Counted from the first letter of the stretch, positions 5,190 through 25,434 are shown. The stretch is 64,000 nucleotides of DNA from an uncultured Acetobacteraceae bacterium (GCA_937873205.1 CALMVO010000018.1:697-64696); one strand, 5' to 3'. The notes: generated by a model from the letters alone, not told the origin. A program made the numbers and translations.

Positions 5190-5804
5190 ATGAAGACCTC
5201 GCTCCACCTCGCCGCCCTCTGCGCCGGCGCCCTCGCCGCCATGCCGCCCGCCCTCGCGCAGGACGCGACGCATGTGGCGTCCACCGTCCAGAGCGGCACC
5301 TACGCGGTCGAGCCAAGCCATACCCAGGTCGGGTTCAGCCTGCTGCACCTGGGCTTCAGCTACTATTCCGGCGTGTTCTCCAGCGTGTCCGGCACGCTGC
5401 AGCTCGATCCGGCACATCTGGCCGACACCAGGCTCGACGTCAGCATCCCCATCGCCTCGGTTTCCACCACCAGCGCCGAGCTGGACGGCAAGCTGAAGAG
5501 CCCGGCCTGGTTCGACGCCGCCGCCTACCCCAACGCCACCTTCGTCTCGACCAAGGTGACGCCGATGGGCAAGACCCGCGCCCAGGTCACCGGCACCCTC
5601 ACCCTGCACGGCATCTCGAAGCCGGAGACGCTCACCGCGACCTTCGTAGGCGCCGGAGTGAACCCGCTCGACAAGAAGTACACGGTCGGCTTCGAGGCGA
5701 CCGGGACCATCCGACGCGGCGATTTCGGGGTCAGGACCTATCTGCCGCTGGTCGGTGACGACGTGCGCCTGACCATCGCCGGCGCCTTCGAGCTGCAGGG
5801 CTGA
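5190..5804 (+). CDS. yceI: YceI-family polyisoprenoid-binding periplasmic protein
   Basis: Signal peptide, GTYAVEPSHTQVGF, HLGFSYYSGVF, WFDAAAYPNATF, GTLTLHGISK, RGDFG; alternative ATG at 5181. Confidence 0.9.
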   Translation: MKTSLHLAALCAGALAAMPPALAQDATHVASTVQSGTYAVEPSHTQVGFSLLHLGFSYYSGVFSSVSGTLQLDPAHLADTRLDVSIPIASVSTTSAELDGKLKSPAWFDAAAYPNATFVSTKVTPMGKTRAQVTGTLTLHGISKPETLTATFVGAGVNPLDKKYTVGFEATGTIRRGDFGVRTYLPLVGDDVRLTIAGAFELQG

Positions 5805-5833
5805 CATACCGGCGCGGCCCGGGCGACGGCCAT

Positions 5834-5858
5834 GCATCCTTCCGCGCCGCCGAGCGTT
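5834..5858 (+). promoter_or_regulatory. Possible EcfG/SigT (general stress response) promoter, GCATC-N16-CGTT
   Basis: Two mismatches to the alphaproteobacterial GGAAC-N16/17-CGTT consensus, 35 nt upstream of a DUF3309-like gene. Confidence 0.3.
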
Positions 5859-5893
5859 ATGGGATCGACACAATCCAGTCGAGAGATTATCCC

Positions 5894-6067
5894 ATGATCA
5901 CCATCCTGATCGTCATCCTGATCATCCTCGCGCTCGGCGGCGGCGGTTACGGTTTTCGGTCCGGCTGGTACGGCGGCTCGCGCGGCACCGGCTTCAACGG
6001 GTTGGGTCTGGTGCCGCTGTTGCTGATCATCATCGTCATCGTGCTGCTGTTCCGCGGCGGCGTCTGA
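5894..6067 (+). CDS. Small two-TM membrane protein, DUF3309-like (57 aa, absent from the ORF track)
   Basis: Hand translation MITILIVILIILALGGGGYGFRSGWYGGSRGTGFNGLGLVPLLLIIIVIVLLFRGGV*; GAGAG upstream. Confidence 0.75.
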   Translation: MITILIVILIILALGGGGYGFRSGWYGGSRGTGFNGLGLVPLLLIIIVIVLLFRGGV

Positions 6068-6093
6068 CACATCCGGATTGGGGGACACGCTGC

Positions 6094-6285
6094 ATGAAGA
6101 CGCTCGTCACACTCGCCGCGGTCCTGCTGGTCGCCTCGGGGGGATCGGCGTCTGCCGCCTCCTGTCGTGACGGCAAGGGCAAGTTCATCGCCTGTCCCCC
6201 GCCGGCGCCGGCCGCGTCCGCCAAGTGCCGGAACGCCGCCGGCAAGTTCGTGAAGTGCAGCGCGCCGGCAGCCGCACCGAAGTAA
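6094..6285 (+). CDS. Small secreted protein with two Cys-x4-GKF-x2-Cys repeats
   Basis: Signal peptide ending ASA; CRDGKGKFIAC and CRNAAGKFVKC separated by a Pro/Ala linker; GGGGGA RBS. Confidence 0.75.
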   Translation: MKTLVTLAAVLLVASGGSASAASCRDGKGKFIACPPPAPAASAKCRNAAGKFVKCSAPAAAPK

Positions 6286-6441
6286 CCGGTGTGCTGACTC
6301 AGGAATCGGTTACGAACAGTTACCAACTGTGCAGTTTGCGGCGGCATCCAGTTCCTACGGCCTGATCGTTAATTTTGTGTTATAGATTTCTTGCCATAAG
6401 GTTGCCTCGGAGCGGCGACACTGTTCGCCAAGCGAGTGGGC

Positions 6442-7452
6442 ATGGCGGAAACGGAACTCAAGAACCGAGGGCTGATCAGGCTTCACAAGACGCACTCTCT
6501 GGTCGAGCACACAGCTGCCCGGACCCTGATCGTGTCAGGCGTCGCGAGATCAGGGACCAGCATGGTCGCCCGCGTGCTCGATGCGGCCGGAATCCCCATG
6601 GGCGACCGGATCGACGACGTGGTGTATGAAGACCAGGATTTCGCCCAGCTGTTCAACCGGCCGACCCTCGACCAGGATGCGCTGGATGGTCTGATTCGTC
6701 AGCGCAATGACGCAAATCCGGTCTGGGGCTTCAAGCGGCCGCAGATGCACCTGCTGGGTGCTGAGACGATTTCCCGGTTCCGCAGCCCGCTGGTCATCGT
6801 GACGCTGCGCGATCCGGTCGCGATCGCCGAACGATACGCCATCGCCGAGCAGATCGACGCACGGACCACGCTGTCGATGGCAATGGGCGACCTGCAGGAA
6901 ATGGTGCTGTTCGCGCAGCGGCTGGCCTGCCCGGTGCTGCTGGTCAGCTACGAGAAGGCGGTGCGGGACCCGGCGCGCCTGGTCGAGCGGCTGCTGGAGT
7001 TCTGCGGCCTGCAGCGGTCGCCAAGCGAGCGCCAGCGGCTGCGCCGTCTCGTCGAGCCCGATCGTCCCGCCTACATCGAGAGCGCCCGCCGCACCTTCGG
7101 CGGCTACATCGACGGCATCCAGGGCACCGTCCTCGGCGGATGGGCCTATGAGCGCTCGCTGGGATTGCCGCTGGCGATTACCGTGTTCCGCGACGACGTG
7201 CCGGTCCTGGACGGCGTCGCCGACCAGTATCGCCAGGACCTGGCCGACGCCGGCATCGATGACGGCCGGCACGGCTTCTCGGTCGACCTCGCCGGCTGCG
7301 GCTTCGTGCCGACCTCGCGCGTGACGGTCCGGGTCAAGGGCCGCAACTTCGCGCTCAACAACAGCGGCGCCAGCGCGGCCGAACTCGGGGCCGATCTCCA
7401 AGCCGAACTCCGCGAGCCGGGCCGCTTCTGGGCCTTGACGCCGTTCGGCTAG
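6442..7452 (+). CDS. Sulfotransferase-like P-loop protein with a C-terminal domain of the type seen in glycosyltransferases
   Basis: VSGVARSGTSM (5'-PSB-like), WGFKRP, VTLRDP (3'-PB-like), VSYE; C-terminal GYID...GGWA...ADQYRQDLADAGI..GRHGF. Confidence 0.65.
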   Translation: MAETELKNRGLIRLHKTHSLVEHTAARTLIVSGVARSGTSMVARVLDAAGIPMGDRIDDVVYEDQDFAQLFNRPTLDQDALDGLIRQRNDANPVWGFKRPQMHLLGAETISRFRSPLVIVTLRDPVAIAERYAIAEQIDARTTLSMAMGDLQEMVLFAQRLACPVLLVSYEKAVRDPARLVERLLEFCGLQRSPSERQRLRRLVEPDRPAYIESARRTFGGYIDGIQGTVLGGWAYERSLGLPLAITVFRDDVPVLDGVADQYRQDLADAGIDDGRHGFSVDLAGCGFVPTSRVTVRVKGRNFALNNSGASAAELGADLQAELREPGRFWALTPFG

Positions 7453-7611
7453 AGGCCGGATCCAGACTTCGCCCAAGGGGCAGCGCTATCGGTCGGCGCC
7501 GTTCGCCGGCCGAGGGCGCTGCCACGCCGCCGCTCCGGCACCGCGCCGCACCCCGAAATGATGTCTCGCGGCGATGGCGGCGGCACCGTAGCCTGGGCGG
7601 ATGAGGACGAC

Positions 7612-8631
7612 ATGGCGGCGCGGGATGGCTATGGCATGAGCGGCGGCAGGCTGTCCCGGCGGCGCCTGCTGACTGCCGCGGCGACGCTGCCGCTGCTGCA
7701 GGCACCGTCGCTGCGTGCGCGCGCCAGCCAGCCGCAGAGACTGCGGCTGCTTACCAACTGGTTCGCCCAAGCCGAGCATGGCGGCTTCTACCAGGCGGAC
7801 GCGCTGGGGCTCTACCGCAACGCCGGCCTCGACGCCGTCGTGGCCATGGGCGGCCCGCAGGTGAACGGCGTCCAGCTGCTGCTGGCCGGCGCCTGCGACA
7901 TCGTGCTGGCGCAGCCGGAGCAGGTGCTGAAGGGGATTCAGAACGGGCTGCCCCTGGTCGCCATCGCCACCACCTTCCAGAAGGGGCTGGGTGGACTGCT
8001 GACGCATCCCGACATCACCGCGCTGGAGCAGCTGCGCGGCCATCCGATCCTGATCAGCACCGAGGGCCGCACCTCCTTCTGGCCGTGGTTGCGCCGCACC
8101 TACGGCTTCGCCGATGCTCAGGCCGGCACCTACACCTTCAACATCCAGCCGTTCCTGTTCGACCCGCGGCTGGCGATGCAGGCGTTCGCGACCTCCGAGC
8201 CCTTCGCCGTGCAACGGCGGCACGTGCCCTACCGCTTCTTCCTGTTCGCCGATGCCGGGTACGCCGGCTACGGCAACATGCTGGTCACGACGCGGGCGAC
8301 ACTCGCCGCGCGCAGGCCGGAGCTGGCCGCCTTCTTGCATGCCAGCATGACCGGCTGGATGTCGGTGCTGACCGGCGACCCGGCACCGGCGCGGCGCGCC
8401 ATCATGGCGGCGAACCCGGCGATGAGCGCCGACCAGATCGACTGGTCGTTCGCCGCACTCCGCCGGCTGCAGGCGGTGGGCGCCCCGGGCCAGGCGATCG
8501 GCCGGTTCGACCCGGCCCGCTGGGCGCGCATCCGCGCGATGGACGTGTCCACCGGGCTGATCCCGGTCTCGCTCGACTGGAGCCAGGCCTTCACCACGGA
8601 GTTCGACGGCGCGATGGACGTGACGCTGTGA
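7612..8631 (+). CDS. ABC transporter substrate-binding protein, NMT1/THI5-like, Tat signal
   Basis: LSRRRLL signal; TNWFAQAEHGGFYQA, MGGPQVNG, YTFNIQPF, SEPF; GAGGA RBS before ATG 7612. Confidence 0.88.
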   Translation: MAARDGYGMSGGRLSRRRLLTAAATLPLLQAPSLRARASQPQRLRLLTNWFAQAEHGGFYQADALGLYRNAGLDAVVAMGGPQVNGVQLLLAGACDIVLAQPEQVLKGIQNGLPLVAIATTFQKGLGGLLTHPDITALEQLRGHPILISTEGRTSFWPWLRRTYGFADAQAGTYTFNIQPFLFDPRLAMQAFATSEPFAVQRRHVPYRFFLFADAGYAGYGNMLVTTRATLAARRPELAAFLHASMTGWMSVLTGDPAPARRAIMAANPAMSADQIDWSFAALRRLQAVGAPGQAIGRFDPARWARIRAMDVSTGLIPVSLDWSQAFTTEFDGAMDVTL

Positions 8632-9467
8632 CGACCGGTCCCCGCCTTCCCCGGCGCCTGTGGCAGGAGATGAGCTGGCCCGAGTTCCGCCGGCTGCCAG
8701 CCGACACCGTGGCGGTGCTGCCGGTCGGCGCCATCGAGCAGCACGGGCCGCATCTGCCGGTGTTCGTCGACAGCTGCATCAACGGCGAGCTGCTGGCCCG
8801 GGCGCTCGCGGCGGCACCCGACGACCTGCCCGTGACCGCGCTGCCGATGCAGAGCGTCGGCAAGAGCGAGGAGCACATCGCCTATCCGGGCACGCTGCTG
8901 CTGTCGGCCGACACGCTGACCCGGGTGCTGGTGGAGCTCGGCGAGAGCGTGGCGCGGGCCGGGGTGCGCCGGCTGCTGCTGCTGAACTCGCATGGCGGCC
9001 AGCCGCAGGTGCTCGACATCGTCGCCCGCACCCTGCGACGGACGCATTCGATGTTCGTGGTCAACGCCAGCTGGATGCGGCTCGGCCTGCCGGACGAGCT
9101 GTTCTCGGACAGTGAGCGCCGGCACGGCATCCATGGCGGCGAGATCGAGACCGCGCTGATGCTGCACCTTCGGCCCGACCTGGTGCGGATGGAGCTGGCC
9201 CGCGACTTCCGCCCGGCGACGTTGGCCCTTGCGGACCGCTGCGAGATCCTGGAGGCCGAGGGCCGGCTCGGCTTCGGCTGGCTGACCCAGGACCTGCATC
9301 CGGCCGGCGCCTGCGGCGACGCCCGGGCCGCAACCGCGGAGGCCGGCCGGCTGGTAGCCGAGCACCAGGTCGGCCGCTTCCTTCGCCTGGTGCGTGAGAT
9401 CGCGGACTTCGACCTCGCCCGCCTGCGGCCGAACGATACCATCGACGAGAACGGGGACGCGCCATGA
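8628..9467 (+). CDS. Creatininase / ArfB / MftE-family metal amidohydrolase
   Basis: LPVGAIEQHGPHLP, GKSEEH, NSHGG, HGGEIET; GTGA overlap with the upstream stop. Confidence 0.9.
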   Translation: MTTGPRLPRRLWQEMSWPEFRRLPADTVAVLPVGAIEQHGPHLPVFVDSCINGELLARALAAAPDDLPVTALPMQSVGKSEEHIAYPGTLLLSADTLTRVLVELGESVARAGVRRLLLLNSHGGQPQVLDIVARTLRRTHSMFVVNASWMRLGLPDELFSDSERRHGIHGGEIETALMLHLRPDLVRMELARDFRPATLALADRCEILEAEGRLGFGWLTQDLHPAGACGDARAATAEAGRLVAEHQVGRFLRLVREIADFDLARLRPNDTIDENGDAP

Positions 9468-10843
9468 CCGGACAGCGCAAGGACATCGCCGGCTTCCTGG
9501 CCGCGCTGGGCGACGTGCCGGTGCAGACCGAGCCGGCGCTGGTACGGCGCAAGAGCCGCGACTTCTTCTGGTACAGCCCGGTGCTGTCCCGCCAGCTCGA
9601 CGGCCTGGTAGCCGATCTGGTGGTGCAGCCGCGCGACGAGGCCGAGCTGCTGCGGGTGGCGGTGCTGGCCCGCCGTCACGGCGTGCCGCTCACCACGCGC
9701 GGTGGCGGCACCGGCAACTACGGACAGGCGGTGCCGCTGGACGGCGGTGCCGTGGTCGACATGGCCGGCTTCGACCGGCTGCTCTGGGCGCGGGACGGCG
9801 TCGCGCGGGTGCAGGCCGGCATGAACATGCTGGCACTCGACCGCGCCCTGCGCGCCCATGGTCAAGGCCACGAGATCCGGCTCTATCCCTCGACCAAGCG
9901 CACCGCCTCGATCGGCGGCTTCGTCTCGGGCGGCTCCGGCGGGATCGGCTCGGTCAGCTGGGGCGGCCTGCGCGACCGCGGCAACGTGCTGGCCGCGCGC
10001 GTGGTGACGCTGCAGGACCCGCCTGCCGCGATCGAGCTGCGCGGCGCCGAGACCGACGCGATCAACCACACCTACGGCACCACCGCGATCGTCACCGAGC
10101 TCGAGATCCCGGTGCAGCCGGCGGTGCGCTGGCGCGAGCTGGCCTGGAGCTTCGCCGACTTCCCGGCCGCCGCGGGCCTCGGCCTGGCGTTGGCCGCCGC
10201 GTCCGGCATCGAGACGAAGCTGGTCACCGCCACCGACGCGGCGCTGACCCCGTTCTTCGGGCCCCTGCGGGACACGGTGCCGCAGGACCGCCCGCTGATC
10301 ATCGCCCTGGTGGCGCCGGCCGGGCTGGAACCGGCGATGGCGCTGGCGGCGCGCCACGGCGGCACGCTGTGCCACGACGGCGACCTCGCCGACGCCGAGG
10401 ACGATCCGGCCCGCGTGCCGCTCTACGAGCTGACCTGGAACCACACCACGCTGCAGGTGCTCAAGCGCGACCGCGGCCACACCTACCTGCAGTGCCTGTA
10501 TCCGCCCGACGGGCTGCTCGAGCGCATCGAGCGCATCCGCGCGCTGTTCGGATCGGAGCTGATGATGCACCTGGAGTTCATGCCGTCGAGCGGCTCGGCC
10601 GGCCGCATGACCTGCTCGGCCCTGCCGGTGCTGCGCTACACCGACGAGGCGCGGCTGGCCGAGATCATCCGGCTGCACGAGGCCGAGGGCGTGATGATCG
10701 CCAACCCGCACGTGTTCACCATCGAGGATGGTGGCATCCACCGCGTCGCCTCGCCCGATCTCGCCAGCGCCAAGGCCCGGCTGGATCCGCTCGGGCTGCT
10801 CAACCCGGGCAAGATGCGCAGCGCGCCGGCGCGGGCCGCATGA
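9464..10843 (+). CDS. FAD-binding oxidoreductase (FAD-linked oxidase fold), intact copy
   Basis: RGGGTGNYGQ, PSTKRTASIGGF, HLEF, NPHVF, DPLGLLNPGK; ATGA overlap. Confidence 0.9.
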   Translation: MTGQRKDIAGFLAALGDVPVQTEPALVRRKSRDFFWYSPVLSRQLDGLVADLVVQPRDEAELLRVAVLARRHGVPLTTRGGGTGNYGQAVPLDGGAVVDMAGFDRLLWARDGVARVQAGMNMLALDRALRAHGQGHEIRLYPSTKRTASIGGFVSGGSGGIGSVSWGGLRDRGNVLAARVVTLQDPPAAIELRGAETDAINHTYGTTAIVTELEIPVQPAVRWRELAWSFADFPAAAGLGLALAAASGIETKLVTATDAALTPFFGPLRDTVPQDRPLIIALVAPAGLEPAMALAARHGGTLCHDGDLADAEDDPARVPLYELTWNHTTLQVLKRDRGHTYLQCLYPPDGLLERIERIRALFGSELMMHLEFMPSSGSAGRMTCSALPVLRYTDEARLAEIIRLHEAEGVMIANPHVFTIEDGGIHRVASPDLASAKARLDPLGLLNPGKMRSAPARAA

Positions 10844-10849
10844 GAGGGA

Positions 10850-10962
10850 AGGCCAGGGCGCTGCCCTGGACCCGCTCAAGGCGAAGCCTTGAGAATCCGA
10901 TCCTTCAAGTAAAATGGTTTCCAAAGGCCGAGGCCTTTGGCGGGTCTGGGCAGAGCCCAGCC
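10850..10962. repeat. Two inverted copies of a double-hairpin REP-like element
   Basis: Plus copy 10850-10898 AGGCCAGGGCGCTGCCCTGGACCCGCTCAAGGCGAAGCCTTGAGAATCC; minus copy 10914-10962 GGCTGGGCTCTGCCCAGACCCGCCAAAGGCCTCGGCCTTTGGAAACCAT. Confidence 0.85.
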
Positions 10963-10982
10963 TTTTTTCCCAGTGGGCAACC

Positions 10983-12650
10983 ATGAGCCGGCTCGCGGTA
11001 CGGCCGAAGCGCACGGAGGCGATGACCACCCGCGACGGCGTGGTCCTGGTCGCCGATATCTGGGAGCCCGCCGAGGGCGGTCCCTATCCGGTGCTGCTGA
11101 TGCGCCAGGCCTATGGGCGCGGGATCGGCCCCGCGCTGTGCTACGCGCCGTCTGCCTGGTACGCGTCGCACGGCTTCATCGTGGTGATGCAGGACGTGCG
11201 CGGCCGCGGCGACTCCGGCGGACCGTTCGAGCTGTTCCGGTTCGAGGCGCAGGACGGCGCCGACACCGTCGCGTGGGCGGCGACGCTGCCGAACGCCAAC
11301 GGCCGGGTCGGCATGTTCGGCTTCTCGTTCCAGGGCACCAACCAGTTGCTGGCGCTGAGCGAGCCCTGCCCGGCGCTGCGCGCGGTGGCGCCGGCGATGC
11401 TCGGCTGGGATCTGCGCACCGACTGGGCCTACGAGAACGGCGCGTTCCCGCTGCGCCTCAATCTCGGCTGGGCGACGCAGCTGATGACCGAGACCGCGCG
11501 CGTGACCGGCGACACCGCGGTGCAGGCCGAATTGTTCGCGATCGGCCGCGCGCTGCCGCTGCATGGCCCGACGCCGGGCCGGCCGGAGTTCATGCGTCGG
11601 CTCGGCCATTGGGGCCACTATCCGGGCTGGGCGGACCGTCCGGACGACGATGCCGGCTGGCGCGCCATCTCGCCGTCGGCGCATCTCGACGCGATCGTCG
11701 CCAACCAACCGGCGGTGCTCCTGGTCGGCGGCTGGTACGACAGCCACCTGCCGGGCACGCTGGCGGCCTGGCATGCGCTGCACGGCCGCGTGCCGCTGCG
11801 CTTCGTGGTCGGGCCATGGGCGCATTTCCCGTGGGACCGCCGGGTCGGCGACCGCGATTTCGGCGCCGAGGCCGTCACCGACATCGACCAGCAGCAGGTC
11901 GCGTGGTTCGACCGCTGGCTGAAGGGCGACGCGCCGCCGGTGTCGGACAGCTTGGGCCCGGAGAGTGTGGTGCGGCTGTTCGACATGGGGACCGCGTCGT
12001 GGCGCGAGATGACGGCGCTGCCGGATGCGACCACGCCGATCTGGCCCTCGGGAAGCGGACGCGCCGCCATCGACATGCGCGACGGCGCCCTGGCCGAGGC
12101 CCTGGCGGCGGCGTCCGAGGAATACCTGGTGCACGACCCGTCGCGGCCGCCGGCGCCGTGCGGCGGCAGCTTCGGCCTGCCGCCGGGCCCGATCGACCGC
12201 CACGTCACCGATTCGCGCTCCGACGTGCTGACCTTCACCACCGAGCCGTTCGCGCGGCCACGCATCCTGTGCGGGGCGGTGACGCTGCAGCTCGACGTCG
12301 AGAGCGACGCGGCCGCGTTCGACCTGCACGCGACGCTGTCCGTCGTCACCACCGCCGGCGCCGCCTACCCGCTGGCCGAGGGCTATGGCAGCTTCGCCGC
12401 CGACCAGTCGCCCTGCCGGCTGCCGATGCGTGCCACCTGCGTCACGCTGCGACCGGGCGAGCGGCTCCGGCTGTCGGTCGCCGCCGCCTGCTTCCCGGCG
12501 TTCGCAATCAATCCGGGCAACGGCACGCGGCCGTGGGACGCGGCCCTGGACAGCCTGCGCGTGATCACGCTCAAGGTCCGCACCGGCACGGGGACGGAGT
12601 CAGTGCTGCACCTGCCGCTCGCACCCGCATCCGAGGAGCTCCCGTCATGA
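10983..12650 (+). CDS. CocE/NonD-family serine hydrolase (peptidase S15-like)
   Basis: TRDGVVLVADIW, QDVRGRGDSGG, QDGADTVAW, nucleophile GFSFQG, GGWYD, VGPWAH and a C-terminal domain. The track start at 10914 lies inside the repeat. Confidence 0.9.
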   Translation: MSRLAVRPKRTEAMTTRDGVVLVADIWEPAEGGPYPVLLMRQAYGRGIGPALCYAPSAWYASHGFIVVMQDVRGRGDSGGPFELFRFEAQDGADTVAWAATLPNANGRVGMFGFSFQGTNQLLALSEPCPALRAVAPAMLGWDLRTDWAYENGAFPLRLNLGWATQLMTETARVTGDTAVQAELFAIGRALPLHGPTPGRPEFMRRLGHWGHYPGWADRPDDDAGWRAISPSAHLDAIVANQPAVLLVGGWYDSHLPGTLAAWHALHGRVPLRFVVGPWAHFPWDRRVGDRDFGAEAVTDIDQQQVAWFDRWLKGDAPPVSDSLGPESVVRLFDMGTASWREMTALPDATTPIWPSGSGRAAIDMRDGALAEALAAASEEYLVHDPSRPPAPCGGSFGLPPGPIDRHVTDSRSDVLTFTTEPFARPRILCGAVTLQLDVESDAAAFDLHATLSVVTTAGAAYPLAEGYGSFAADQSPCRLPMRATCVTLRPGERLRLSVAAACFPAFAINPGNGTRPWDAALDSLRVITLKVRTGTGTESVLHLPLAPASEELPS

Positions 12651-13069
12651 TGCACGCCGTCACCAAGCGCCCGGTCTCCGAGGTCGAGGCCTTTCGCATC
12701 GCGCCCGCCGACAGCAACTACTTCGCGCTGCTGCTCGACCGCCAGGCCGGCGGCACCGAAGCCGTCTGCGTGGTCGAGATCTTCACCGTCGGCGGCCGCA
12801 CGCCCCCCAACACCCACGCCGCCGCCGACGAGTTCTTCTACGTGCTGAGCGGCACCGGCGTCGCCCGCTGCGACGGGCGCGAGGTGTCGCTGAAGCGGGG
12901 CGACGCGCTGCTGGTGCGGCCAGGCTCGGAGCACGTGATCGAGAACACCGGCGAGTCCAAGCTCTACACGCTGACCGTGATGACGCCGAACGAGGGCTTC
13001 GCCGAGCTGATCCGCGCCGGCGAGCCGGTTCGGCTCGACGCCGAGGACCTCGCCGTGCTGTGCGGCTGA
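12647..13069 (+). CDS. Cupin-domain protein
   Basis: GGRTPPNTHAAADEFFYVLSGTG and GSEHVIEN cupin motifs; ATGA overlap. Confidence 0.88.
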   Translation: MMHAVTKRPVSEVEAFRIAPADSNYFALLLDRQAGGTEAVCVVEIFTVGGRTPPNTHAAADEFFYVLSGTGVARCDGREVSLKRGDALLVRPGSEHVIENTGESKLYTLTVMTPNEGFAELIRAGEPVRLDAEDLAVLCG

Positions 13070-13075
13070 GCGCCG

Positions 13076-13867
13076 ATGCGGCCGCTCGGCAGCAGCCCGC
13101 GCAACACGTGGCAGGTCTCGCCGGACTTGGTCGACACCGTGCGCCCGCGGCCGCAGCAGCATCCCTTCCTGCTCGCCGCCGAACCCCGGCCGCTGCGGAT
13201 CGACCTTGCCGCCGCAGCGTTGCTGGTGATCGACATGCAGAACGATTTCTGCCACCCGGACGGCTGGCTGGCGGGTATCGGCGTCGACGTCGCACCGGCA
13301 CGGGCGCCGATCGCGCCGCTGCAGCGGCTGCTGGCCGCGCTGCGCGCGCAGGCCGTGCCGGTGCTGTGGGTCAGCTGGGGCAACCGGCCCGACCGGCTGA
13401 ACCTGAGCCCGTCGCTGCTCCACGTCTATGACCCGCACGGCACCGGCGTCGGCCTCGGCGCCGCACTCGCCCCGCAGGGGTCGCGCGTGCTGGAGGCCGG
13501 CGGCTGGAGTGCCGCCATCGTCGACGAGCTGACGCCCGCGCCCGGCGACATCCAGGTCGCGAAGTACCGCATGTCCGGCTTCTGGGACACGCCGCTCGAC
13601 AGCATCCTGCGCAACCTGCGCGTTGACACCCTGCTGTTCGCCGGCGTCAACGTCGACCAGTGCGTCATGGCGACGCTGCAGGACGCCAGTTGCCTTGGCT
13701 ACGACTGCATCCTGATGGATGACTGCGCTGGCACCACCTCGCCGGCGTTCTGCCACGAGGCGACGCGATACAACGTCAGGCAGTGCTACGGCTTCACGGC
13801 CCTTTCTGAAGACGTCATCAAGGCAACGGGCGTCACGCGCCGGCGTGCTTCGCACGACGCCCCTTGA
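13076..13867 (+). CDS. Cysteine hydrolase, isochorismatase superfamily (RutB/biuret-hydrolase-like amidohydrolase)
   Basis: LLVIDMQNDF (Asp), KYRMSGF (Lys), GVNVDQCV (Cys) catalytic triad. Confidence 0.9.
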   Translation: MRPLGSSPRNTWQVSPDLVDTVRPRPQQHPFLLAAEPRPLRIDLAAAALLVIDMQNDFCHPDGWLAGIGVDVAPARAPIAPLQRLLAALRAQAVPVLWVSWGNRPDRLNLSPSLLHVYDPHGTGVGLGAALAPQGSRVLEAGGWSAAIVDELTPAPGDIQVAKYRMSGFWDTPLDSILRNLRVDTLLFAGVNVDQCVMATLQDASCLGYDCILMDDCAGTTSPAFCHEATRYNVRQCYGFTALSEDVIKATGVTRRRASHDAP

Positions 13868-13900
13868 CCCCGTCGAAGGCGGAGCCTTTGAAATCCATTT
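13859..13900 (+). repeat. Degenerate partial copy of the REP-like element spanning a gene junction
   Basis: GCCCCTTGACCCCGTCGAAGGCGGAGCCTTTGAAATCCATTT versus consensus GCCCCTGGACCCCGCCAAAGGC..GCCTTTGGAAACCATTT. Confidence 0.7.
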
Positions 13901-14385
13901 CTTCAGCAGGAAGGATCGCAAAGATCGGCATGGTGCTCGGCCTTGCGACGTTCGCGCTCCTGGTCGGCATCGACAACCTCACCGACTACGGCTCCAACTT
14001 CCTGTTCGTGCGCCACGTGCTCAGCATGGACACGACCTTCCCGGATAGCGCGCTGCGCTGGCGCGCACTGACGCCGCCCTGGAGCTGGCACGCGGCCTAC
14101 GCCCTCATCATCGCCGGCGAGCTCGGCACCGGCGCGCTCTTCGCCGCGGCCGGCCTGCGCATGCTGCGCGACCGCGTGGCACCGCCGGAGGTCTTCGCGC
14201 AAGCCCGGAACTTGGCGCATTACGGCGTGCTGGCCGGCTTCCTCGTCTGGTTCCTGGGCTTCACCGTCATCGGCGGCGAGTGGTTCGCCATGTGGCAGTC
14301 GCCCCGGTGGAACGGGCAGGAGCCGGCGTTCCGCTTCCTGGTCGCCATCCTGGCGGTCGGCCTCTACGTCCAGCAGCCCGACTGA
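13864..14385 (+). CDS. DUF2165-family inner membrane protein
   Basis: NLTDYGSNFLFVRHVLSMDTTF, GGEWFAMWQS..WNGQEPAFRF; start codon uncertain (TTG 13864 or 13888). Confidence 0.85.
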   Translation: MTPSKAEPLKSISSAGRIAKIGMVLGLATFALLVGIDNLTDYGSNFLFVRHVLSMDTTFPDSALRWRALTPPWSWHAAYALIIAGELGTGALFAAAGLRMLRDRVAPPEVFAQARNLAHYGVLAGFLVWFLGFTVIGGEWFAMWQSPRWNGQEPAFRFLVAILAVGLYVQQPD

Positions 14386-15665
14386 AGCCCGTCCAGCTCG
14401 CGGTAGCGCGGCGGCACCGCCCCGGTGGCCCGGCCGCCGCGGATGACCAGCCGGTCCGCCTGCGGGCGCGACAGCAGCTCGTTCAAGCTACGCGCGTCGA
14501 ACACCACCAGGTCCGCCGCGTCGCCGACGGCGAGGCCGCCGCCCCGACCCATCCAGCCCGCCGGCGTCGCCGTCACCGCGCGCGGCCAGTCCGCGAACGG
14601 ATGGTCAAGATGGCCGATGCGCGCCGAATGGCCGAACACCTCCAGCATGTCGAGGTCGCCATAGGCATGGAACGGGTCGCGCGTGTTGTCGCTGGCCAGC
14701 ATGACCGGCACACCCGCCGCCACCAGCTCGTGCAGCAGCGTGACGCCGCGCCAGCGCGGCGTCCGGCCGACCCGCCGATCCTGCAGATAGAGGTTGCACA
14801 TCGGCAGGCTGACGACGCCGAGCCCGGCCTCGGCCACCAGCGCGATCGTCTCCCGCCGCCGCGGCGGCGGCTGTACCGCCAGGCTGCAGCAGTGCCCGCA
14901 CAGCACCCGCCCGCGGAACCGATGCCGCAGCGCCGCCCGCGCCACCTGCTCGAGCCCGGTGCCTGCGGCGACGCCGTTCTCGTCCACGTGCAGGTCGAGC
15001 TCGAGCCCGTGCGCCGCGGCCAGCGCGAACAGCCGGTCCAGCCGCTCCGGCAGTCCCGGCTCATGGACCACCAGACCGCCCAGCACGCCGCCCTCGGTCG
15101 CCGCCACCTCCGCCGCGATCGCGTCACCCGCGGCGCCGGCGAGCTGGTCCAGCAGGCAGAGCGAGACCGCCTGCAGCGCGATGCGTCCGCGCCAGCGCGC
15201 CTGCACCGCCCGAAACAGCGGCCACACCACCGTGCGGTGGTCCCCGAACGTGTCGAGATGGGTGCGGATCGCCGAGGTGCCGTGCGCGTAGGCAGAGCGC
15301 AGCGCGAACTCCATGCGCGCCTCCATGTCGTCCCGCGTCCAGTGCGCCGACCGATCGGCGCCCGCCGCCGCCAACGCCGCCCCGAAGCTGCCGTCTGGGT
15401 TCGGCGCGCGCGGCCAGATCTGGCCCTTGTCGAGATGGGTATGGACGTCCTGAAACGCCGGCCAGACCAGCGCGCCGTCCAGCTCCAGAACCGGCACGTC
15501 GGCCGCGATGCCGGCGCCGATCCCCGCCAGCCGGCCGTCCTGCACCAACAGGTCGAGGCGGGCCAGCCCGTCCCGGTCACCGTGATCCAGCAGGCAGGAC
15601 GGCACCTGCCCGCCTCGCAGGAGCCAAGTGTCGCCGGGGGGAAGATCCAGGAACGGCGTGATCAT
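14364..15665 (-). CDS. Cytosine-deaminase-like amidohydrolase (candidate pterin/nucleobase deaminase)
   Basis: DVHTHLDKG, AIRTHLD, DLHVDE, GHCCSL, SLPMCNLYLQDR, SDNTRDPFHAYGDLDMLEV. Confidence 0.88.
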   Translation of the reverse strand: MITPFLDLPPGDTWLLRGGQVPSCLLDHGDRDGLARLDLLVQDGRLAGIGAGIAADVPVLELDGALVWPAFQDVHTHLDKGQIWPRAPNPDGSFGAALAAAGADRSAHWTRDDMEARMEFALRSAYAHGTSAIRTHLDTFGDHRTVVWPLFRAVQARWRGRIALQAVSLCLLDQLAGAAGDAIAAEVAATEGGVLGGLVVHEPGLPERLDRLFALAAAHGLELDLHVDENGVAAGTGLEQVARAALRHRFRGRVLCGHCCSLAVQPPPRRRETIALVAEAGLGVVSLPMCNLYLQDRRVGRTPRWRGVTLLHELVAAGVPVMLASDNTRDPFHAYGDLDMLEVFGHSARIGHLDHPFADWPRAVTATPAGWMGRGGGLAVGDAADLVVFDARSLNELLSRPQADRLVIRGGRATGAVPPRYRELDGLQSGCWT

Positions 15666-15684
15666 CCGGGCGAGCAGACCGTGC

Positions 15685-15700
15685 TGGCATCCCATGTGCA
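15685..15700 (+). promoter_or_regulatory. Possible sigma54 (-24/-12) promoter TGGCATCCCATGTGCA
   Basis: GG and GC are correctly spaced, with two mismatches to TGGCAC-N5-TTGCW, in the 47-bp divergent gap. Confidence 0.4.
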
Positions 15701-15712
15701 AGCGGACCGGGC

Positions 15713-16546
15713 ATGAGTCATCCGCAACGGTATCCTGCCGACATCTCCGAATCCGGTGCCGATCGGCCGCCGGTGGTGGCGCTGCGGGCGGTGGAGATGG
15801 TGTTCGCCCGCCACGCGCGGGCTTTGGCGCCGACCGAGCTCACCATCCGGTCGGGCGAATTCGCGAGCCTGATCGGGCCGTCCGGCTGCGGCAAGAGCAC
15901 GCTGCTCAAGCTGGCGGCACGGCTGCACGAGCCATCCGCCGGCCAGGTCGAGTGGTGGGGCGGGGACTTTCGCCGCGTCGGCGAGGCCGGCCGGCGGCTG
16001 GCCTTCGTGTTCCAGGACCCGACCCTGATGCCGTGGGCCGACGTCGCCAGCAACGTCCGCCTGCCGCTCGACCTCCGGCGCGTGCCCCGCGCCGAGGCAT
16101 CGGAGCGCGTCGCGGCGGCGCTGCGCCAGGTCGGGCTCGCCGACCGTCATGCCGAGCGGCCGCACCGCCTCTCGGGCGGCATGCGCATGCGGGTCTCGAT
16201 CGCCCGCGCGCTGGTCACCGACCCCGACCTGCTGCTGATGGACGAACCGTTCGGCGCCCTCGACGAGTTCACCCGCGACCGGCTGGACGAGGACCTGCTG
16301 GCGCTGGCGGCGCAGCGGCAGCTCACCACCCTGTTCGTGACCCACTCGATCGGCGAGGCCGCGTTCCTGTCCTCGCGCGTGCTGGTGATGGCGTCGGGCC
16401 CGGGCCGGATCTTCGCCGAGTATCCCGTCCCCGACCCGTTCCCGCGGGACGAGGCCTACCGGCTCGGCAGCCGCTACGCCGAGCATTGCCGCTGCCTGTC
16501 GCGGCTGCTGCACGAGGCGTCCCGCAGCGGCGAGGTCCGCGCATGA
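15713..16546 (+). CDS. ABC transporter ATP-binding protein, NitT/TauT family
   Basis: Walker A GPSGCGKST, signature LSGGM, Walker B LLLMDEPF, H-loop VTH. Confidence 0.93.
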   Translation: MSHPQRYPADISESGADRPPVVALRAVEMVFARHARALAPTELTIRSGEFASLIGPSGCGKSTLLKLAARLHEPSAGQVEWWGGDFRRVGEAGRRLAFVFQDPTLMPWADVASNVRLPLDLRRVPRAEASERVAAALRQVGLADRHAERPHRLSGGMRMRVSIARALVTDPDLLLMDEPFGALDEFTRDRLDEDLLALAAQRQLTTLFVTHSIGEAAFLSSRVLVMASGPGRIFAEYPVPDPFPRDEAYRLGSRYAEHCRCLSRLLHEASRSGEVRA

Positions 16547-17310
16547 TGGCGCTGCCGCGCATCCTGGCCCCTGCCCTCGTCGGCGTGCTGTTGCTGGCAC
16601 TGTGGCAGGCAGGCTGCGTCGCCTGGCACGTGCCCCCGTACATCTTCCCGGCCCCCTCCGCCATCGCCGCCAGCCTGTGGCAGAACCTGGGCGCGCTGCT
16701 GCACGCGCTGCGCAGCACCATGGCGGTGACGCTGACCGCGCTGGCGCTGGCGGTGCTCGCCGGCACCGCGATCTCGTTCCTGTTCGTGCAGAGCCGGGCG
16801 ATCGAGGCCAGCCTGATGCCCTATGCGGTCATGCTGCAGGTCACCCCCATCGTCGCGGTGGCGCCGCTGATCATCATCCTGGTGAAGGACACGTTCTGGT
16901 CGCTGGTGCTGTGCGCCGCGGTGATCGCGCTGTTCCCGGTCATCTCCAACACCACGCTCGGCCTGCGCAGCGTCGATCCCGGGCTGCTCGCCTTCTTCCG
17001 CATGAACAAGGCCGGGCGCTGGCAGACCCTGTGGCGCCTGCGCGTGCCGAGCGCGCTGCCGTTCTTCCTGGCCGGGCTGCGCGTCGCCGCCGGGCTCGCC
17101 CTGGTCGGCGCGGTGGTGGCGGAGTTCGTCGCCGGCACCGGCGGCCGCAGCGCCGGGCTCGCCTACGAGATCCTGCAGGCCTCGTTCCAGCTCGACATCC
17201 CGCGCATGTTCGCCGCCCTGGTGCTGATCACCCTGGCCGGCATCGCGCTCACACTGGCCACCGCCGGGCTGAGCCGCCGCATGCTGCGCGGCCGCGAGCC
17301 GGACGCGTGA
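16543..17310 (+). CDS. ABC transporter permease, NitT/TauT family
   Basis: PPYIFPAPS, QVTPIVAVAPL, FPVISNTTLGLRSVD, VVAEF; hydrophobic segments. Confidence 0.92.
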   Translation: MMALPRILAPALVGVLLLALWQAGCVAWHVPPYIFPAPSAIAASLWQNLGALLHALRSTMAVTLTALALAVLAGTAISFLFVQSRAIEASLMPYAVMLQVTPIVAVAPLIIILVKDTFWSLVLCAAVIALFPVISNTTLGLRSVDPGLLAFFRMNKAGRWQTLWRLRVPSALPFFLAGLRVAAGLALVGAVVAEFVAGTGGRSAGLAYEILQASFQLDIPRMFAALVLITLAGIALTLATAGLSRRMLRGREPDA

Positions 17311-18359
17311 CCGGCGCACCCGACATTCGGGCACTGGTCCGAGCGCTGGACGGAATCGCGCTGGCGCTCGACCTGCCGACTCGTCGGCGCAAGAGCCGCG
17401 ACTTCTTCTGGTATAGCCCGATCCTCCGCGAGCGGCTGGACGCGGCCTGCGCCGACCTGATCGCGAGCCCAGCCGACACCGGCGAGGTTCGCCGCGTCCT
17501 CTCCGCCTGCGCCGCCCTCGGCGTGCCGGTGACCGCCCGCGGCGCCGGCACCGGCAATTACGGCCAGGCAACCCCGCTCGCCGGCGGCCTGGTGCTCGAC
17601 ATGACCGGGCTCACCGGCATCGAGTGGCTGCAGGACGGCGTGGTGCGGGTGCGCGCCGGCACCAACATCCTGGCACTGGCGGATCAGCTGCGCGGCGAGG
17701 GCGCCGAGCTCCGGCTGTATCCCTCGACTAAGCGCACCGCCACCATCGGCGGACTCGTATGCGGCGGCGCCGGCTCGGCGAGCTGGGGCATGCTATGGGA
17801 GGCCGGCAACATCGTCGCGATCGACCTGCTGACGATGGAGCCCGAGCCGCGCCCGGTCACGCTGCGCGGCGAGCGCTGCCGCCTCGCCAGCCGGTGCTTC
17901 GGCACCACCGGCATCGTCACCGCCGTCGAGTTGCCGGTGCAGCCGCTGGTGGCCTGGCGCGACGTGGTGGCGGCCTTCGACACGCTGGCCGCCGCCGCCC
18001 GCTTCGGCCGCGCCTTCACCGCGGCGCAGGGCATCGGCAAGGCGCTGTGCTCGGTCTCCGAGGCTGCCATCGTCCCCTACCTGGAGCCGCTGCAGGGGCG
18101 CGTCGCCGCCGGCGATGCCGCGGCGCTGCTGATGATGGCGCCGCACTCCATGGACGCCACCGCCGACCTGGTACGCCGGCACGACGGCCGCATCGCCAGC
18201 GACGAGGACGCGCTGGACAACGAACGCGACCCGGAGCGCACCCCGCTCTACGAGATGAGCTACAACCACACGACACGGAACGTGCTGAAGCGGGACCGCG
18301 GGCGCTCCATCACCGGACCCGCACGTCCGCGGCGGCGGCACGTCCGTCCGCATCGGTGA
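17307..18359 (+). pseudogene. Second FAD-binding oxidoreductase paralogue, 3'-truncated at ~18314
   Basis: Collinear with 9464-10843 (RRKSRDFFWYSP, GTGNYGQ, PSTKRTA) up to LKRDRGRSIT, then runs antisense into pbpC. The HLEF/NPHVF C-terminal part (~125 aa) is missing. Confidence 0.8.
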
Positions 18360-20307
18360 CCGCGACGTGGGCGAAGCCGGGCCCGTCGGGTGACCAGGCC
18401 GGGGTGCCGCCGGGCAGCGCCGTCACCGGCGCGCCGTCAACCATCCAGCGATAGGGCGGGGTGCCGCCGGAGGCCTCCAACCCGATCGGCTGCATGTGCC
18501 CGTCGCCGTCGCCGCTTTCGACGACCGCGCCGGGCGCCGGCGCCAGCACACGCGGGCCGCCGTCGATCCCGAGCACCTGCAGCGCGGGCGATAGGTCGCG
18601 CGGACGGATGCGCGCGGCGTCAACGCCAAGGTCAGGTGATGCCCGACCGTCCGGGTTCAGCACGTCGAGCAGGCGGCCCAGAAGCGGGGCGGCGGTCTCG
18701 CGTCCGGTGATCCCCGGCGAGGCGGTGCCGTCCGGCCGTCCGGCCCAGGCCACCACCGTCCAGTCCGGCGTGGCGCCGGCGGCCCAGGCGTCGCGCTGGC
18801 CGTAGGAGGTGCCGGTCTTGAAGGCGACCGATCGGGCGCTCCAGTCGCCGACGCCGGGCGGCGGCGGCGTGCCGCGCAGGATCTCAGTCACCTCGCGCGC
18901 GGCGCGGGCATCCATGACTCGCATGCCGGCCGGCACGGGGCCGGGCTCGACCCGCACCGGACGGACGATGCCGCCGTCGGCCAGCGCGCCGTAGAGGCCG
19001 GCTAGGTCGAGCATGCTGATGCCGGCACCGCCGAGGATCACCGGCAGCCCGGGGGCGGCGCCGCGCGGCAGCGCCAGGCGGACGCCGCAGGCAGCGAGCA
19101 TGGCCACGAAGCGGCCGGGGCCGACGCGCCGCAGCACCTGCACGGCCGGAAGGTTGTAGGATTGCTGCAGGGCGACCCGGGCGGTCGTTCCGCCGTGGAA
19201 ATGGTGGTCGTAGTTCCGCGGCGCGTAGCTGGAGAACCCCATCCGCTCATCGCGCAGCAGGGTGTCTGGCGTGAGCTCGCCCGCCTCGAAGGCCATGCCG
19301 TAGGCGAACGGCTTCAGCGTGGAGCCCGGCGATCGGCGGGCCGTCACCATGTCGACGCCGCAGCCGGGGCAGTCACGTGACCGTCCGGTGCCGGCCGGAC
19401 CGGCGCCGCCGATCCAGATCGCCGCGGTCCGGTCGCGCCGAGCGACCAGCACCGCATATTCGCCGCGCGGGGGTGGCGGCATCGACCGGACGATGCGGAG
19501 CGCGGTGCGCTGCAGGTCGCCGTCGAGGGTGGTGCGCACGATCCCCCTGCGGCCGAACGCCCACTCGCGCCCGAGCAGCGCCGGCGCGTCGTGCGGCATC
19601 GGCGCCCGCCCGACCGGTTCCGCGTCACCGTTGGGTCCGGCGCGGCCCAGCACGCGCGCGGCGGCGAGGAGCGCCGCACCGGGATGCCGGTCGGGACGCC
19701 AAGCTTCCGGCCGCCGCGGCAGCGCCACCAGCAACGCCGCCTCGCGCGGCGCCAAGTGCAGCGGATCGTGCCCGAGATAGAGCAGCGAGGCCGCACGGAT
19801 GCCCTCGACGTTGCCGCCCTCCGGCGCCAGCGTGAGGTAGATGTCGAGGACCCCGGCGCGGCCGTAGCGGGCCTCCAGCTGCAGCGCACGCAGGATGTCG
19901 CGAGCCTTGCCGGCGAGGTCGTGCGGATGCGGCGACAGCAGCCGCGCCGCCTGCATCGCCAGCGTCGATCCGCCGGACACCACCCGCCAGCGTACCGCGA
20001 GCTGATACGCCGCCCGGACCAGCGCCAGCGGATCGACGCCCGGATGCGCCGCGAAGCGGCGGTCCTCGGTGTGCAGCAGCAGCGCGACGTAGGCCGGGTC
20101 GACGTCGGCGCGACGGGTGGATAGGCGCCAGGCGCCGTCGGCGGAGGTCCGTCCGTCGAGCGGCCGTCCCTCGTCGTCGAGCAGCACCAGCGACGTCGCC
20201 CGCAGGCGTGACAGGTCGGGCGGAAAGGCGCGATCCAGCGCGATGACGGCGAGGCAGCCCGCTGCCAGCAGCGCCACAGTTGGTGCCAGCCGGATGCGCC
20301 GCCTCAC
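18310..20307 (-). CDS. pbpC: Penicillin-binding protein 1C
   Basis: Transglycosylase EDRRF and GGSTLAMQ; transpeptidase SPGSTLKPF, SYN, KTGTS; C-terminal BiPBP-type domain; follows the macroglobulin gene. Confidence 0.93.
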   Translation of the reverse strand: MRRRIRLAPTVALLAAGCLAVIALDRAFPPDLSRLRATSLVLLDDEGRPLDGRTSADGAWRLSTRRADVDPAYVALLLHTEDRRFAAHPGVDPLALVRAAYQLAVRWRVVSGGSTLAMQAARLLSPHPHDLAGKARDILRALQLEARYGRAGVLDIYLTLAPEGGNVEGIRAASLLYLGHDPLHLAPREAALLVALPRRPEAWRPDRHPGAALLAAARVLGRAGPNGDAEPVGRAPMPHDAPALLGREWAFGRRGIVRTTLDGDLQRTALRIVRSMPPPPRGEYAVLVARRDRTAAIWIGGAGPAGTGRSRDCPGCGVDMVTARRSPGSTLKPFAYGMAFEAGELTPDTLLRDERMGFSSYAPRNYDHHFHGGTTARVALQQSYNLPAVQVLRRVGPGRFVAMLAACGVRLALPRGAAPGLPVILGGAGISMLDLAGLYGALADGGIVRPVRVEPGPVPAGMRVMDARAAREVTEILRGTPPPPGVGDWSARSVAFKTGTSYGQRDAWAAGATPDWTVVAWAGRPDGTASPGITGRETAAPLLGRLLDVLNPDGRASPDLGVDAARIRPRDLSPALQVLGIDGGPRVLAPAPGAVVESGDGDGHMQPIGLEASGGTPPYRWMVDGAPVTALPGGTPAWSPDGPGFAHVAVTDADGRAAAADVRVR

Positions 20308-25184: not shown

Positions 25185-25346
25185 GCGGAGCAGCCTGTGG
25201 TCGATGCAAAATTGGAACGATCTAGCATCGGCGGTCGGCGCGTATCGGACAAGCCAGCCGACTTGGCCACGTCTTCTCCGCATCGGCCGAACCTGATCCC
25301 GGCAGGCTAGACGTCCACGATTACCAACTTCTCAACAACAGGATGT

Positions 25347-25374
25347 AGGGCTCTGCCTTTGGCGGGGTCCAGGG
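25347..25374 (-). repeat. Partial REP-like element
   Basis: Reverse complement CCCTGGACCCCGCCAAAGGCAGAGCCCT matches the core of the copy at 29542. Confidence 0.7.
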
Positions 25375-25434
25375 ACGTCTTGCGAACCACGCCTGGCGCG
25401 ACGCTCCTCGCCCCCTCCTCTTCCGAACGGCCTG

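Follow-up and report, generated by a model that had tools for sequence, protein, structure and literature searches.

A conserved Acetobacteraceae gene cluster with a proposed role in the catabolism of a pterin-type N-heterocycle

The 64,000-nucleotide stretch of DNA analyzed here, which we call the window, comes from an uncultured Acetobacteraceae bacterium (GCA_937873205.1, CALMVO010000018.1:697-64696). At positions 7612-18359 it carries a cluster of importer and enzyme genes for which we propose a role in the breakdown of a pterin-type (pteridine) N-heterocycle. The G+C content is ~72% across the window, and spurious open reading frames (ORFs) are numerous. Genes were called by choosing frames on third-position GC content (GC3), by inspection of start codons and by Pfam and NCBIfam scans, and GC3 gave a single clear frame in each segment. 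Every gene type listed in an initial annotation of the sequence was recovered by this approach.

The cluster opens on the plus strand with the gene for an NMT1-type substrate-binding protein (SBP; 7612-8631, alternative start at 7558), followed by genes for a creatininase-family protein (8628-9467) and for FAD1, a FAD_binding_4 enzyme of 459 residues (9464-10843). Beyond an intergenic gap (10844-10982) the same strand encodes a CocE/NonD hydrolase (the ORF opens at 10914, has its likely start at 10983 and ends at 12650), a cupin (12647-13069), an isochorismatase-fold cysteine hydrolase that we call IsoC (13076-13867) and a small integral membrane protein of the DUF2165 family (13864-14385). 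A cytosine-deaminase-like (CD-like) amidohydrolase of the NF005759/PRK07583 type is encoded on the minus strand (14364-15665, within an ORF that extends to 15701). The plus strand then resumes with genes for an ABC ATPase (15713-16546), an ABC permease (16543-17310) and FAD2, a second FAD_binding_4 ORF of 350 residues (17307-18359). Four-nucleotide stop/start overlaps occur at six of the ten junctions (8628, 9464, 12647, 13864, 16543 and 17307). The initial annotation had described most of the genes as joined in this way, which holds for those six, but it listed the genes in a different order and the deaminase gene lies on the minus strand. This gene is convergent with the DUF2165 gene, which it overlaps by 22 nt, and divergent from the ATPase gene; homolog N-termini place its start at the ATG at 15665, and 47 nt then separate it from the ATPase gene. 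The sole sizeable gap in the cluster, 139 nt between the FAD1 and CocE genes, holds a copy of a short repeat (~10853-10912) and a terminator-like hairpin (10946-10960) that leads into a T-run, the two spanning 10946-10969 in a terminator scan. Four transcription units probably make up the cluster. An Rfam scan of positions 5800-18800 gave no match of note, and so no tetrahydrofolate or other riboswitch, and a scan of the cluster region for sigma-70-like promoters also gave no match.

We scanned a genome collection with the creatininase-family protein, which yielded 80 loci, and mapped all window proteins onto them by tblastn. Counts were made over the 62 full-length loci of at least 19 kb, all of them anchored on the creatininase gene. 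The ATPase gene was found in 51 of these loci, the permease and FAD genes in 48 each, the SBP gene in 44, the CD-like gene in 39 and a Flavodoxin_2 gene in 30. Lower counts were obtained for the cupin (29), CocE (28), IsoC (26), Rieske oxygenase (20), RidA (12) and DUF2165 (9) genes. The partner families are shuffled in order and orientation among the loci, whose hosts include Acetobacteraceae, Alcaligenaceae, Bradyrhizobium, Methylobacteriaceae, Solirubrobacterales, Dormiibacterota and Methylomirabilota. Komagataeibacter oboediens groups nine of the genes, eight as one same-strand run with the deaminase gene divergent upstream. Strains with the cluster include K. oboediens LMG 18849 and Gluconobacter cerinus NBRC 3267. 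A genome-level census of 70 other Acetobacteraceae genera, with one genome per genus, found the FAD gene in 13 genomes, the creatininase gene in 14, the CD-like gene in 17 and the cupin gene in 11. All 13 FAD-positive genomes carried the creatininase gene and 12 of them the CD-like gene; both the FAD and creatininase genes were present in each of the 11 cupin-positive genomes, and the deaminase gene stood alone in five of the 70. Within the genomes the cluster genes are mostly no more than 10 kb apart. This co-occurrence across genomes, together with the proximity of the genes, identifies the cluster as a patchy accessory unit whose components move as a group. Clustering to this degree greatly exceeds what chance would give, and co-occurrence of the families in other genomes, on which the initial annotation had made its reading depend, is thus confirmed for a real conserved cluster. 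About one-third of the loci also have a Rieske/VanA-type oxygenase gene inside the importer operon (for example at 7121-8161 of locus L015, and in 19 others), and there is none in the window.

The conserved loci are of two kinds: RidA and Flavodoxin_2 genes mark the core type, and CocE, cupin and IsoC genes mark the extended type. The latter three behave as a unit: the cupin and IsoC genes go together in 23 of 29 cupin loci, and the CocE and cupin genes in 22 of 28 CocE loci. The three hardly ever accompany RidA, which was found in none of the 28 CocE loci, compared to 12 of the 34 loci without CocE. The core type occurs in Rhizobiales, Inquilinus and Ancylobacter. The extended type occurs in Acetobacteraceae, Verticiella, Pigmentiphaga, Bradyrhizobium and Solirubrobacterales, and only in Acetobacteraceae is DUF2165 added to it. 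The window belongs to the extended type and has CocE, cupin and IsoC in place of RidA and Flavodoxin_2. Core-type loci of Hoeflea and Mesorhizobium share one layout, in which creatininase and RidA genes form one group and genes for an NMT1-type SBP, ATPase, permease, CD-like deaminase, FAD enzyme and one or two Flavodoxin_2 proteins form the other; the same core cluster is present in Ancylobacter, Inquilinus and a betaproteobacterium. On two Rhizobium leguminosarum plasmids the core cluster adjoins genes for a PaoABC-like molybdenum oxidoreductase and a LysR regulator.

The CD-like amidohydrolase scored 572.6 bits against NF005759, for which the cut-off is 403. Its residues H87, H89, H238, E241, H270 and D338 align with H61, H63, H214, E217, H246 and D313 of CodA, and the catalytic and metal residues of this mononuclear site (the HxH motif, His and Asp, plus Glu and His) are invariant in 42 family members. 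CodA Gln156, which we take to be the cytosine-recognition residue, corresponds to Leu183, and CodA Asp314 corresponds to Asn339. Across the 42 family members the Gln156-equivalent position is Leu, Met, Pro or Gly, and never Gln. The family has its own invariant signature (K92, W96, R98, N101, R129, R146, H148, C271/C272, N303, Y305, Q307, R309, R318, N339, D342 and F344), and both this signature and the pocket-region residues are identical in the deaminases of the two cluster types. The score against PRK09230 was 89, far short of the cut-off of 483. The initial annotation had also made its reading depend on the enzyme being something other than a plain cytosine deaminase, and the replacement of Gln156 by Leu183, the PRK09230 score and the distinct signature support that distinction. 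A genome search showed that the CD-like gene is the only one of its kind in the source genome, which has no CodA-type paralog.

Identities between the window deaminase and those of five chromosomal core-type clusters are 51-58%; with plasmid-borne Rhizobium deaminases they are ~47-55%, and all of these proteins form a single family in our tree. By sequence, therefore, it belongs to the family of Rhizobiales CDA-like deaminases. Databases mostly call members of this family just "cytosine deaminase", which is probably the wrong name for the whole family. A single UniRef entry with 95% identity to the R. leguminosarum protein bears the name "Pterin deaminase", which is a name and not an assay. 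We propose that the CD-like protein is a pterin-type deaminase.

A second line of evidence comes from the flavoenzyme FAD1. PDB entries 6v42/6v43 are its sole close solved relative (phmmer E = 3.1e-114 for 6v42). An AlphaFold model of FAD1 (pLDDT 90.7) was aligned by Foldseek to 6v42 with a TM-score of 0.92, an rmsd of 2.2 and 43% identity. The fold is of the VAO/PCMH type, and 39 residues are invariant across the clades of the FAD family. The title of the 6v42 entry describes a flavin oxygenase "involved in folate catabolism"; no open publication behind 6v42/6v43 was found in searches of the open full-text literature. A Hoeflea protein shares 90% identity with the 6v42 protein and Mesorhizobium relatives share 77%; their genes are those of the core-type loci described above. 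More than 7,000 database proteins match 6v42 at E ≤ 1e-100. The pterin/folate suggestion made in the initial annotation is strengthened by these data, since the nearest solved relative of FAD1 is titled for folate catabolism and genes of its subfamily lie beside deaminase, importer and creatininase genes of the families seen here. In the tree, FAD1 lies in clade II with relatives from Acetobacteraceae, Bradyrhizobium and Methylobacteriaceae, and 6v42 lies in clade I, outside the orthologous clade. The placement of FAD1 and 6v42 in sister clades points to the same kind of pathway, but not necessarily to the same reaction. Two loci carry tandem FAD genes, one from each clade (L062, 10437-13060; L069, 9590-12237), and a third has three FAD paralogs (L016, 15048-19209). 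The tandem FAD_binding_4 genes of all three loci sit downstream of the deaminase gene, and such paralogs suggest sequential oxidations or a heteromeric enzyme.

The second FAD ORF of the window is of another kind. FAD2 is 47% identical to FAD1 over ~335 residues, has lost three residues from the invariant GGSGGIG loop and stops ~120 residues short, so that the invariant Q343, E371, H416 and DPxGLLNPGK motif are missing. No remnant of the missing end was found downstream of FAD2, and the ORF is absent from the two closest relatives (L001 and L002). It runs tail to tail into the neighboring pbpC gene, with 50 nt in common at the two 3' ends (18310-18359). The initial annotation had counted two FAD oxidoreductases; both FAD_binding_4 ORFs exist, but FAD2 is a truncated, degenerate paralog and is probably a remnant. 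The right-hand edge of the cluster looks as if it was cut by a rearrangement.

Further links to pteridines come from other loci and from the literature. Seven extended-type loci encode an amidohydrolase of the NF009059 type; 8-oxoguanine deaminase comes next among its NCBIfam matches, in a group to which isoxanthopterin deaminase also belongs. The abstract of the 2013 study of Arad_3529 by Fan and colleagues is said to mention an "undescribed pterin degradation pathway". PMC12391406 (section 12) describes lumazine clusters of Rhizobiales in which a "CDA-like" deaminase replaces the pterin deaminase of Cupriavidus, and cites pterin deaminase activity (EC 3.5.4.11) for the CDA-like Arad_3529. 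In Variovorax, the gene that comes after a verified pterin deaminase gene is labeled "endoribonuclease" and is of the RidA type (PMC9513972). We assign the class of substrate tentatively, from the title of a PDB entry, a statement in a single paper and homology at the ~45-55% level.

The SBP matches Pfam NMT1 (E = 6.9e-21) and is predicted to be periplasmic, to have an NMT1/THI5-like fold and to serve a NitT/TauT-type importer. Its relatives in the PDB are remote only (4nmy and ThiY, 3ix1), and it is 31-37% identical to the SBPs of 6v42-type clusters. The ATPase (ABC_tran, E = 3e-33) has its best NCBIfam matches among taurine, nitrate and SaoA types, and the permease (BPD_transp_1, E = 6.2e-25) among SaoP, NtrB and SsuC types, all under their cut-offs; each is ~50% identical to its counterparts in 6v42-type or core clusters. 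The creatininase-family protein matches Pfam Creatininase (E = 1.9e-71) but scores 97.1 bits against the creatininase equivalog TIGR04448, well below the cut-off of 235. Its predicted metal ligands (E37, H39, D48, H122, H169 and E174) are strictly conserved among 60 orthologs. It is 49-55% identical to its core-type counterparts, and FAD1 is 43-44% identical to the FAD enzymes of those clusters. By family, then, this protein is a metal-dependent hydrolase and not a true creatininase (EC 3.5.2.10), and we propose for it a ring-opening or deacylating step.

The enzymes of the CocE block also retain their expected active sites. The CocE-type alpha/beta serine hydrolase scored 342.6 bits against TIGR00976 (cut-off 66.3) and matches cocaine esterase at E = 1e-52; its S138, D276 and H304 are conserved without exception among 26 orthologs. 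The cupin is a small, single-domain protein (Cupin_2, E = 2.8e-16) with an intact metal site of N55, H57, E62 and H96, residues that vary little or not at all among 22 orthologs, and we propose that it acts as an Fe(II)/Mn(II) ring-cleaving dioxygenase or aminohydrolase. IsoC matches Pfam Isochorismatase (E = 7.8e-35) and, among solved structures, RutB (E = 3e-33). It falls below the cut-offs of both the RutB equivalog (131.9 versus 377.95) and the BiuH model NF050097 (122.8 versus 370), and its triad of D53, K163 and C196 is invariant. A role in amide or ureido hydrolysis with release of ammonia is proposed for IsoC. An apparent IsoC-DUF2165 fusion in locus L001 proved to be an artefact of the ORF-extension script. 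DUF2165 itself is a clear family member (Pfam E = 3.8e-58), and every one of the nine loci that encode it is from Acetobacteraceae. Judged by their sequences, the deaminase, cupin, IsoC, CocE-type and creatininase-family enzymes all keep their catalytic residues.

Together, these results lead us to favor, with modest confidence, a reading of the stretch as a catabolic island for a pterin-type N-heterocycle, for example pterin itself, pterin-6-carboxylate or some other product of folate or pigment breakdown. The analysis shows that the genes are present with intact catalytic residues, that they stay associated across genomes and that they are homologous to a cluster linked to pterin and folate; which compound is degraded, how the steps are ordered and what chemistry each involves we infer. 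The compound would be taken up by the NMT1-type ABC importer, and the CD-like amidohydrolase would then strip the exocyclic amino group from the 2-amino-4-oxo ring, converting pterin into lumazine and ammonia. The VAO-fold FAD1 would oxidize or oxygenate the ring, and the creatininase-family metallohydrolase would open the cyclic amide. Finally, the metal cupin, the CocE-type serine hydrolase and the RutB/BiuH-like IsoC would break down the fragments, with the remaining nitrogen leaving as ammonia or carbamate. This last stage could be modeled on the enzyme trio of the lower nicotinate pathway or on RutB-type ureido hydrolysis, RutB being the closest sequence relative of IsoC. A wider claim is possible, and we raise it only tentatively: clusters of the window type may encode a complete, molybdenum-independent and as yet undescribed pterin mineralization pathway. 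Such a pathway would combine deamination, a flavin oxygenase with an EncM-like fold, a creatininase-type ring hydrolase and a dioxygenase/deacylase/amidase trio. Downstream it would form an alternative to the branch with RidA and flavodoxin that Rhizobiales have, and gene transfer would have spread it among bacteria of soil and plants in several phyla.

Several points weigh against a pterin-type substrate and have to be set beside the evidence for it. The low identity of the SBP (31-37%) means that the imported ligand may differ from that of the 6v42-type clusters. The window also lacks the RidA and Flavodoxin_2 genes found in those clusters, and FAD1 is a sister-clade member and not an ortholog of 6v42, so the reactions of the two enzymes may differ. 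The label "folate catabolism" is a PDB entry title only, and the orthology of the window deaminase to the assayed Arad_3529 is indirect. The locus census is anchored on the creatininase gene, and its Fisher tests, which ignore phylogeny, are indicative only.

Some of these points also fit a different reading, in which the same enzymology serves another ring: the extended type would degrade a non-pterin compound, for example a lumazine or flavin fragment, an oxidized purine such as 8-oxoguanine or a modified pyrimidine, and only the core type would act on pterins. We consider this unlikely. FAD1 falls in a clade paralogous to that of 6v42, the SBPs share only 31-37% identity, and the accessory genes differ systematically, as illustrated by RidA (0/28 CocE loci versus 12/34 without CocE). 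In addition, eight extended-type loci (L019, L021, L029, L033, L064, L070, L075 and L079) have no CD-like gene within 10 kb, which indicates that an amino group is not always involved. However, the deaminase signature and pocket residues are invariant in both types, which favors a shared class of first substrate in every cluster that has the deaminase, and the NF009059 deaminase of extended-type loci still indicates bicyclic, purine- or pteridine-like rings. The cluster could also consist of two independent modules lying side by side, one formed by the importer, deaminase, FAD and creatininase genes and the other, CocE-cupin-IsoC-DUF2165, acting on an unrelated compound. The CocE block does look like a separate transcription unit, with a terminator-like hairpin before it and short repeat copies at its bounds, and its cupin-IsoC (23/29) and CocE-cupin (22/28) pairs behave as one unit. 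Yet among the 70 genera the cupin gene never occurs without FAD and creatininase genes, and where it lies far from the FAD gene (in genomes G006, G007 and G014) it still adjoins the creatininase gene, the CD-like gene or both. The same-strand run of eight genes in Komagataeibacter, with its divergent upstream deaminase gene, also makes two separate modules improbable.

Two further routes fare worse. A pyrimidine pathway would combine a plain cytosine deaminase with Rut-like ring opening to degrade cytosine, uracil or methylated cytosines. The database name of the deaminase, the closeness of IsoC to RutB, the RidA (RutC-like) and flavin reductase-like genes of the core type and the absence of any other CodA-type gene from the genome would all fit such a pathway. 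Against these stand the absence of Gln156 from every family member examined, the PRK09230 and RutB scores (89 versus 483 and 132 versus 378), the lack of a RutA-type monooxygenase among the cluster ORFs and the folate catabolism label of the nearest FAD relative, and we regard a pyrimidine route as very improbable. Least probable of all is a creatinine route, in which creatinine deaminase, a cyclic amidase acting on N-methylhydantoin and N-carbamoylsarcosine amidase would act in turn. Its family types fit superficially (a CD-like protein, a creatininase-family protein and an isochorismatase-fold amidase), and N-carbamoylsarcosine amidase (1nba) is a weak match to IsoC (E = 2e-10). But the creatininase equivalog score is too low (97 versus 235), IsoC is nearer to RutB and BiuH (3e-33 versus 2e-10) and the cluster has no sarcosine oxidase. 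A biuret or s-triazine route was also considered and rejected, with a BiuH score of 122.8 against a cut-off of 370 and no cyanuric acid hydrolase or allophanate hydrolase among the cluster ORFs.

The genes on either side of the cluster appear unrelated to it. Upstream lies a sulfotransferase-like gene (6436-7452) with weak Pfam matches only and no NCBIfam match. Further upstream, an ORF at 2642-4108 matches Peptidase_S15 from profile position 90 onward only, which would fit a second hydrolase of the CocE/S15 type that is interrupted or has lost its N-terminus. Downstream, on the opposite strand, pbpC and an alpha-2-macroglobulin gene (18310-25283) adjoin the cluster. The same pair lies beside the core-type cluster of Mesorhizobium australicum (locus L086, 1-4060), a bacterium of another taxonomic order, and its adjacency in both organisms could be chance or an old linkage. 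The short repeat noted in the FAD1-CocE gap is ~60 nt long, and its copies are ~73-83% alike (10853-10912, 13852-13913 and 25349-25384). The second copy is at the IsoC/DUF2165 junction, where it spans the TGA stop and the TTG start; the third is partial and sits just past the macroglobulin gene. We considered whether the CocE block had been inserted between repeats and rejected the idea: the flanking copies are only ~73% alike over ~60 nt and another copy lies elsewhere, so this is a short dispersed repeat that gives no clear evidence of insertion.

The initial annotation knew of no described pathway with the full gene set of the window. This stands for the extended set, since no description of the gene combination was found in the searchable open literature, but the core had already been tied to pterin and folate breakdown through Arad_3529 and 6v42; for neither type is a full pathway available in the open literature. 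Pterins and fragments of folate occur everywhere and are rich in nitrogen, and the single bacterial breakdown route worked out in the searchable open literature, that of Cupriavidus in 2025, uses molybdenum enzymes. Showing what both cluster types do would correct a widespread annotation and would give functions to a subgroup of the creatininase family, a subfamily of VAO-fold oxygenases, a small cupin and DUF2165. It would also account for bacterial recovery of nitrogen from pteridines.

The window cluster resembles several known systems in part. It shares with cluster I of Cupriavidus sp. LA-1 a start by pterin deaminase and a dedication to pteridine breakdown, the former as proposed here for the CD-like protein. 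PMC12391406 describes a Cupriavidus route to xanthine whose enzymes are a molybdenum lumazine dehydrogenase, an amidohydrolase-2 isomerase and a prenylated-FMN (UbiD-type) decarboxylase. General Pfam and NCBIfam scans found none of these three among the ORFs at 6436-20307, and no search was aimed at UbiD; four molybdenum hydroxylase loci lie elsewhere in the source genome, on other contigs. E. coli CodA (PDB 1k6w) has the fold and the metal and catalytic residues of the window deaminase. It differs in having Gln156 and Asp314 where the window protein has Leu and Asn, it is a weak match, and the CD-like family has an invariant Lys/Trp/Arg/Cys signature of its own. In the lower nicotinate pathway, the ring-cleaving dioxygenase NicX, the alpha/beta-hydrolase deformylase NicD and the isochorismatase-fold amidase NicF act together. 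The cupin, CocE-type hydrolase and IsoC may form the same trio of enzyme classes, as a functional analogy only in which NicX is not a cupin. The E. coli Rut pathway (RutA-G) is closer in its overall logic, in which a ring amide is opened and a ureido group is then hydrolyzed, and it has relatives in the RutB-like IsoC of the window and in the RidA (RutC-like) and flavin reductase-like genes of the core type. The window cluster differs from it in having no RutA (no luciferase-like monooxygenase), an ABC importer and not RutG, and a deaminase and a VAO-fold flavoenzyme in addition. The Rhizobiales CDA-like pterin deaminase/6v42 cluster lacks the CocE, cupin, IsoC and DUF2165 genes that the window adds, carries the RidA and Flavodoxin_2 genes that the window lacks and has a flavoenzyme of the sister clade. 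It shares with the window an NMT1-type ABC importer, a CD-like deaminase with the same signature, a VAO-fold flavoenzyme family and a creatininase-family hydrolase.

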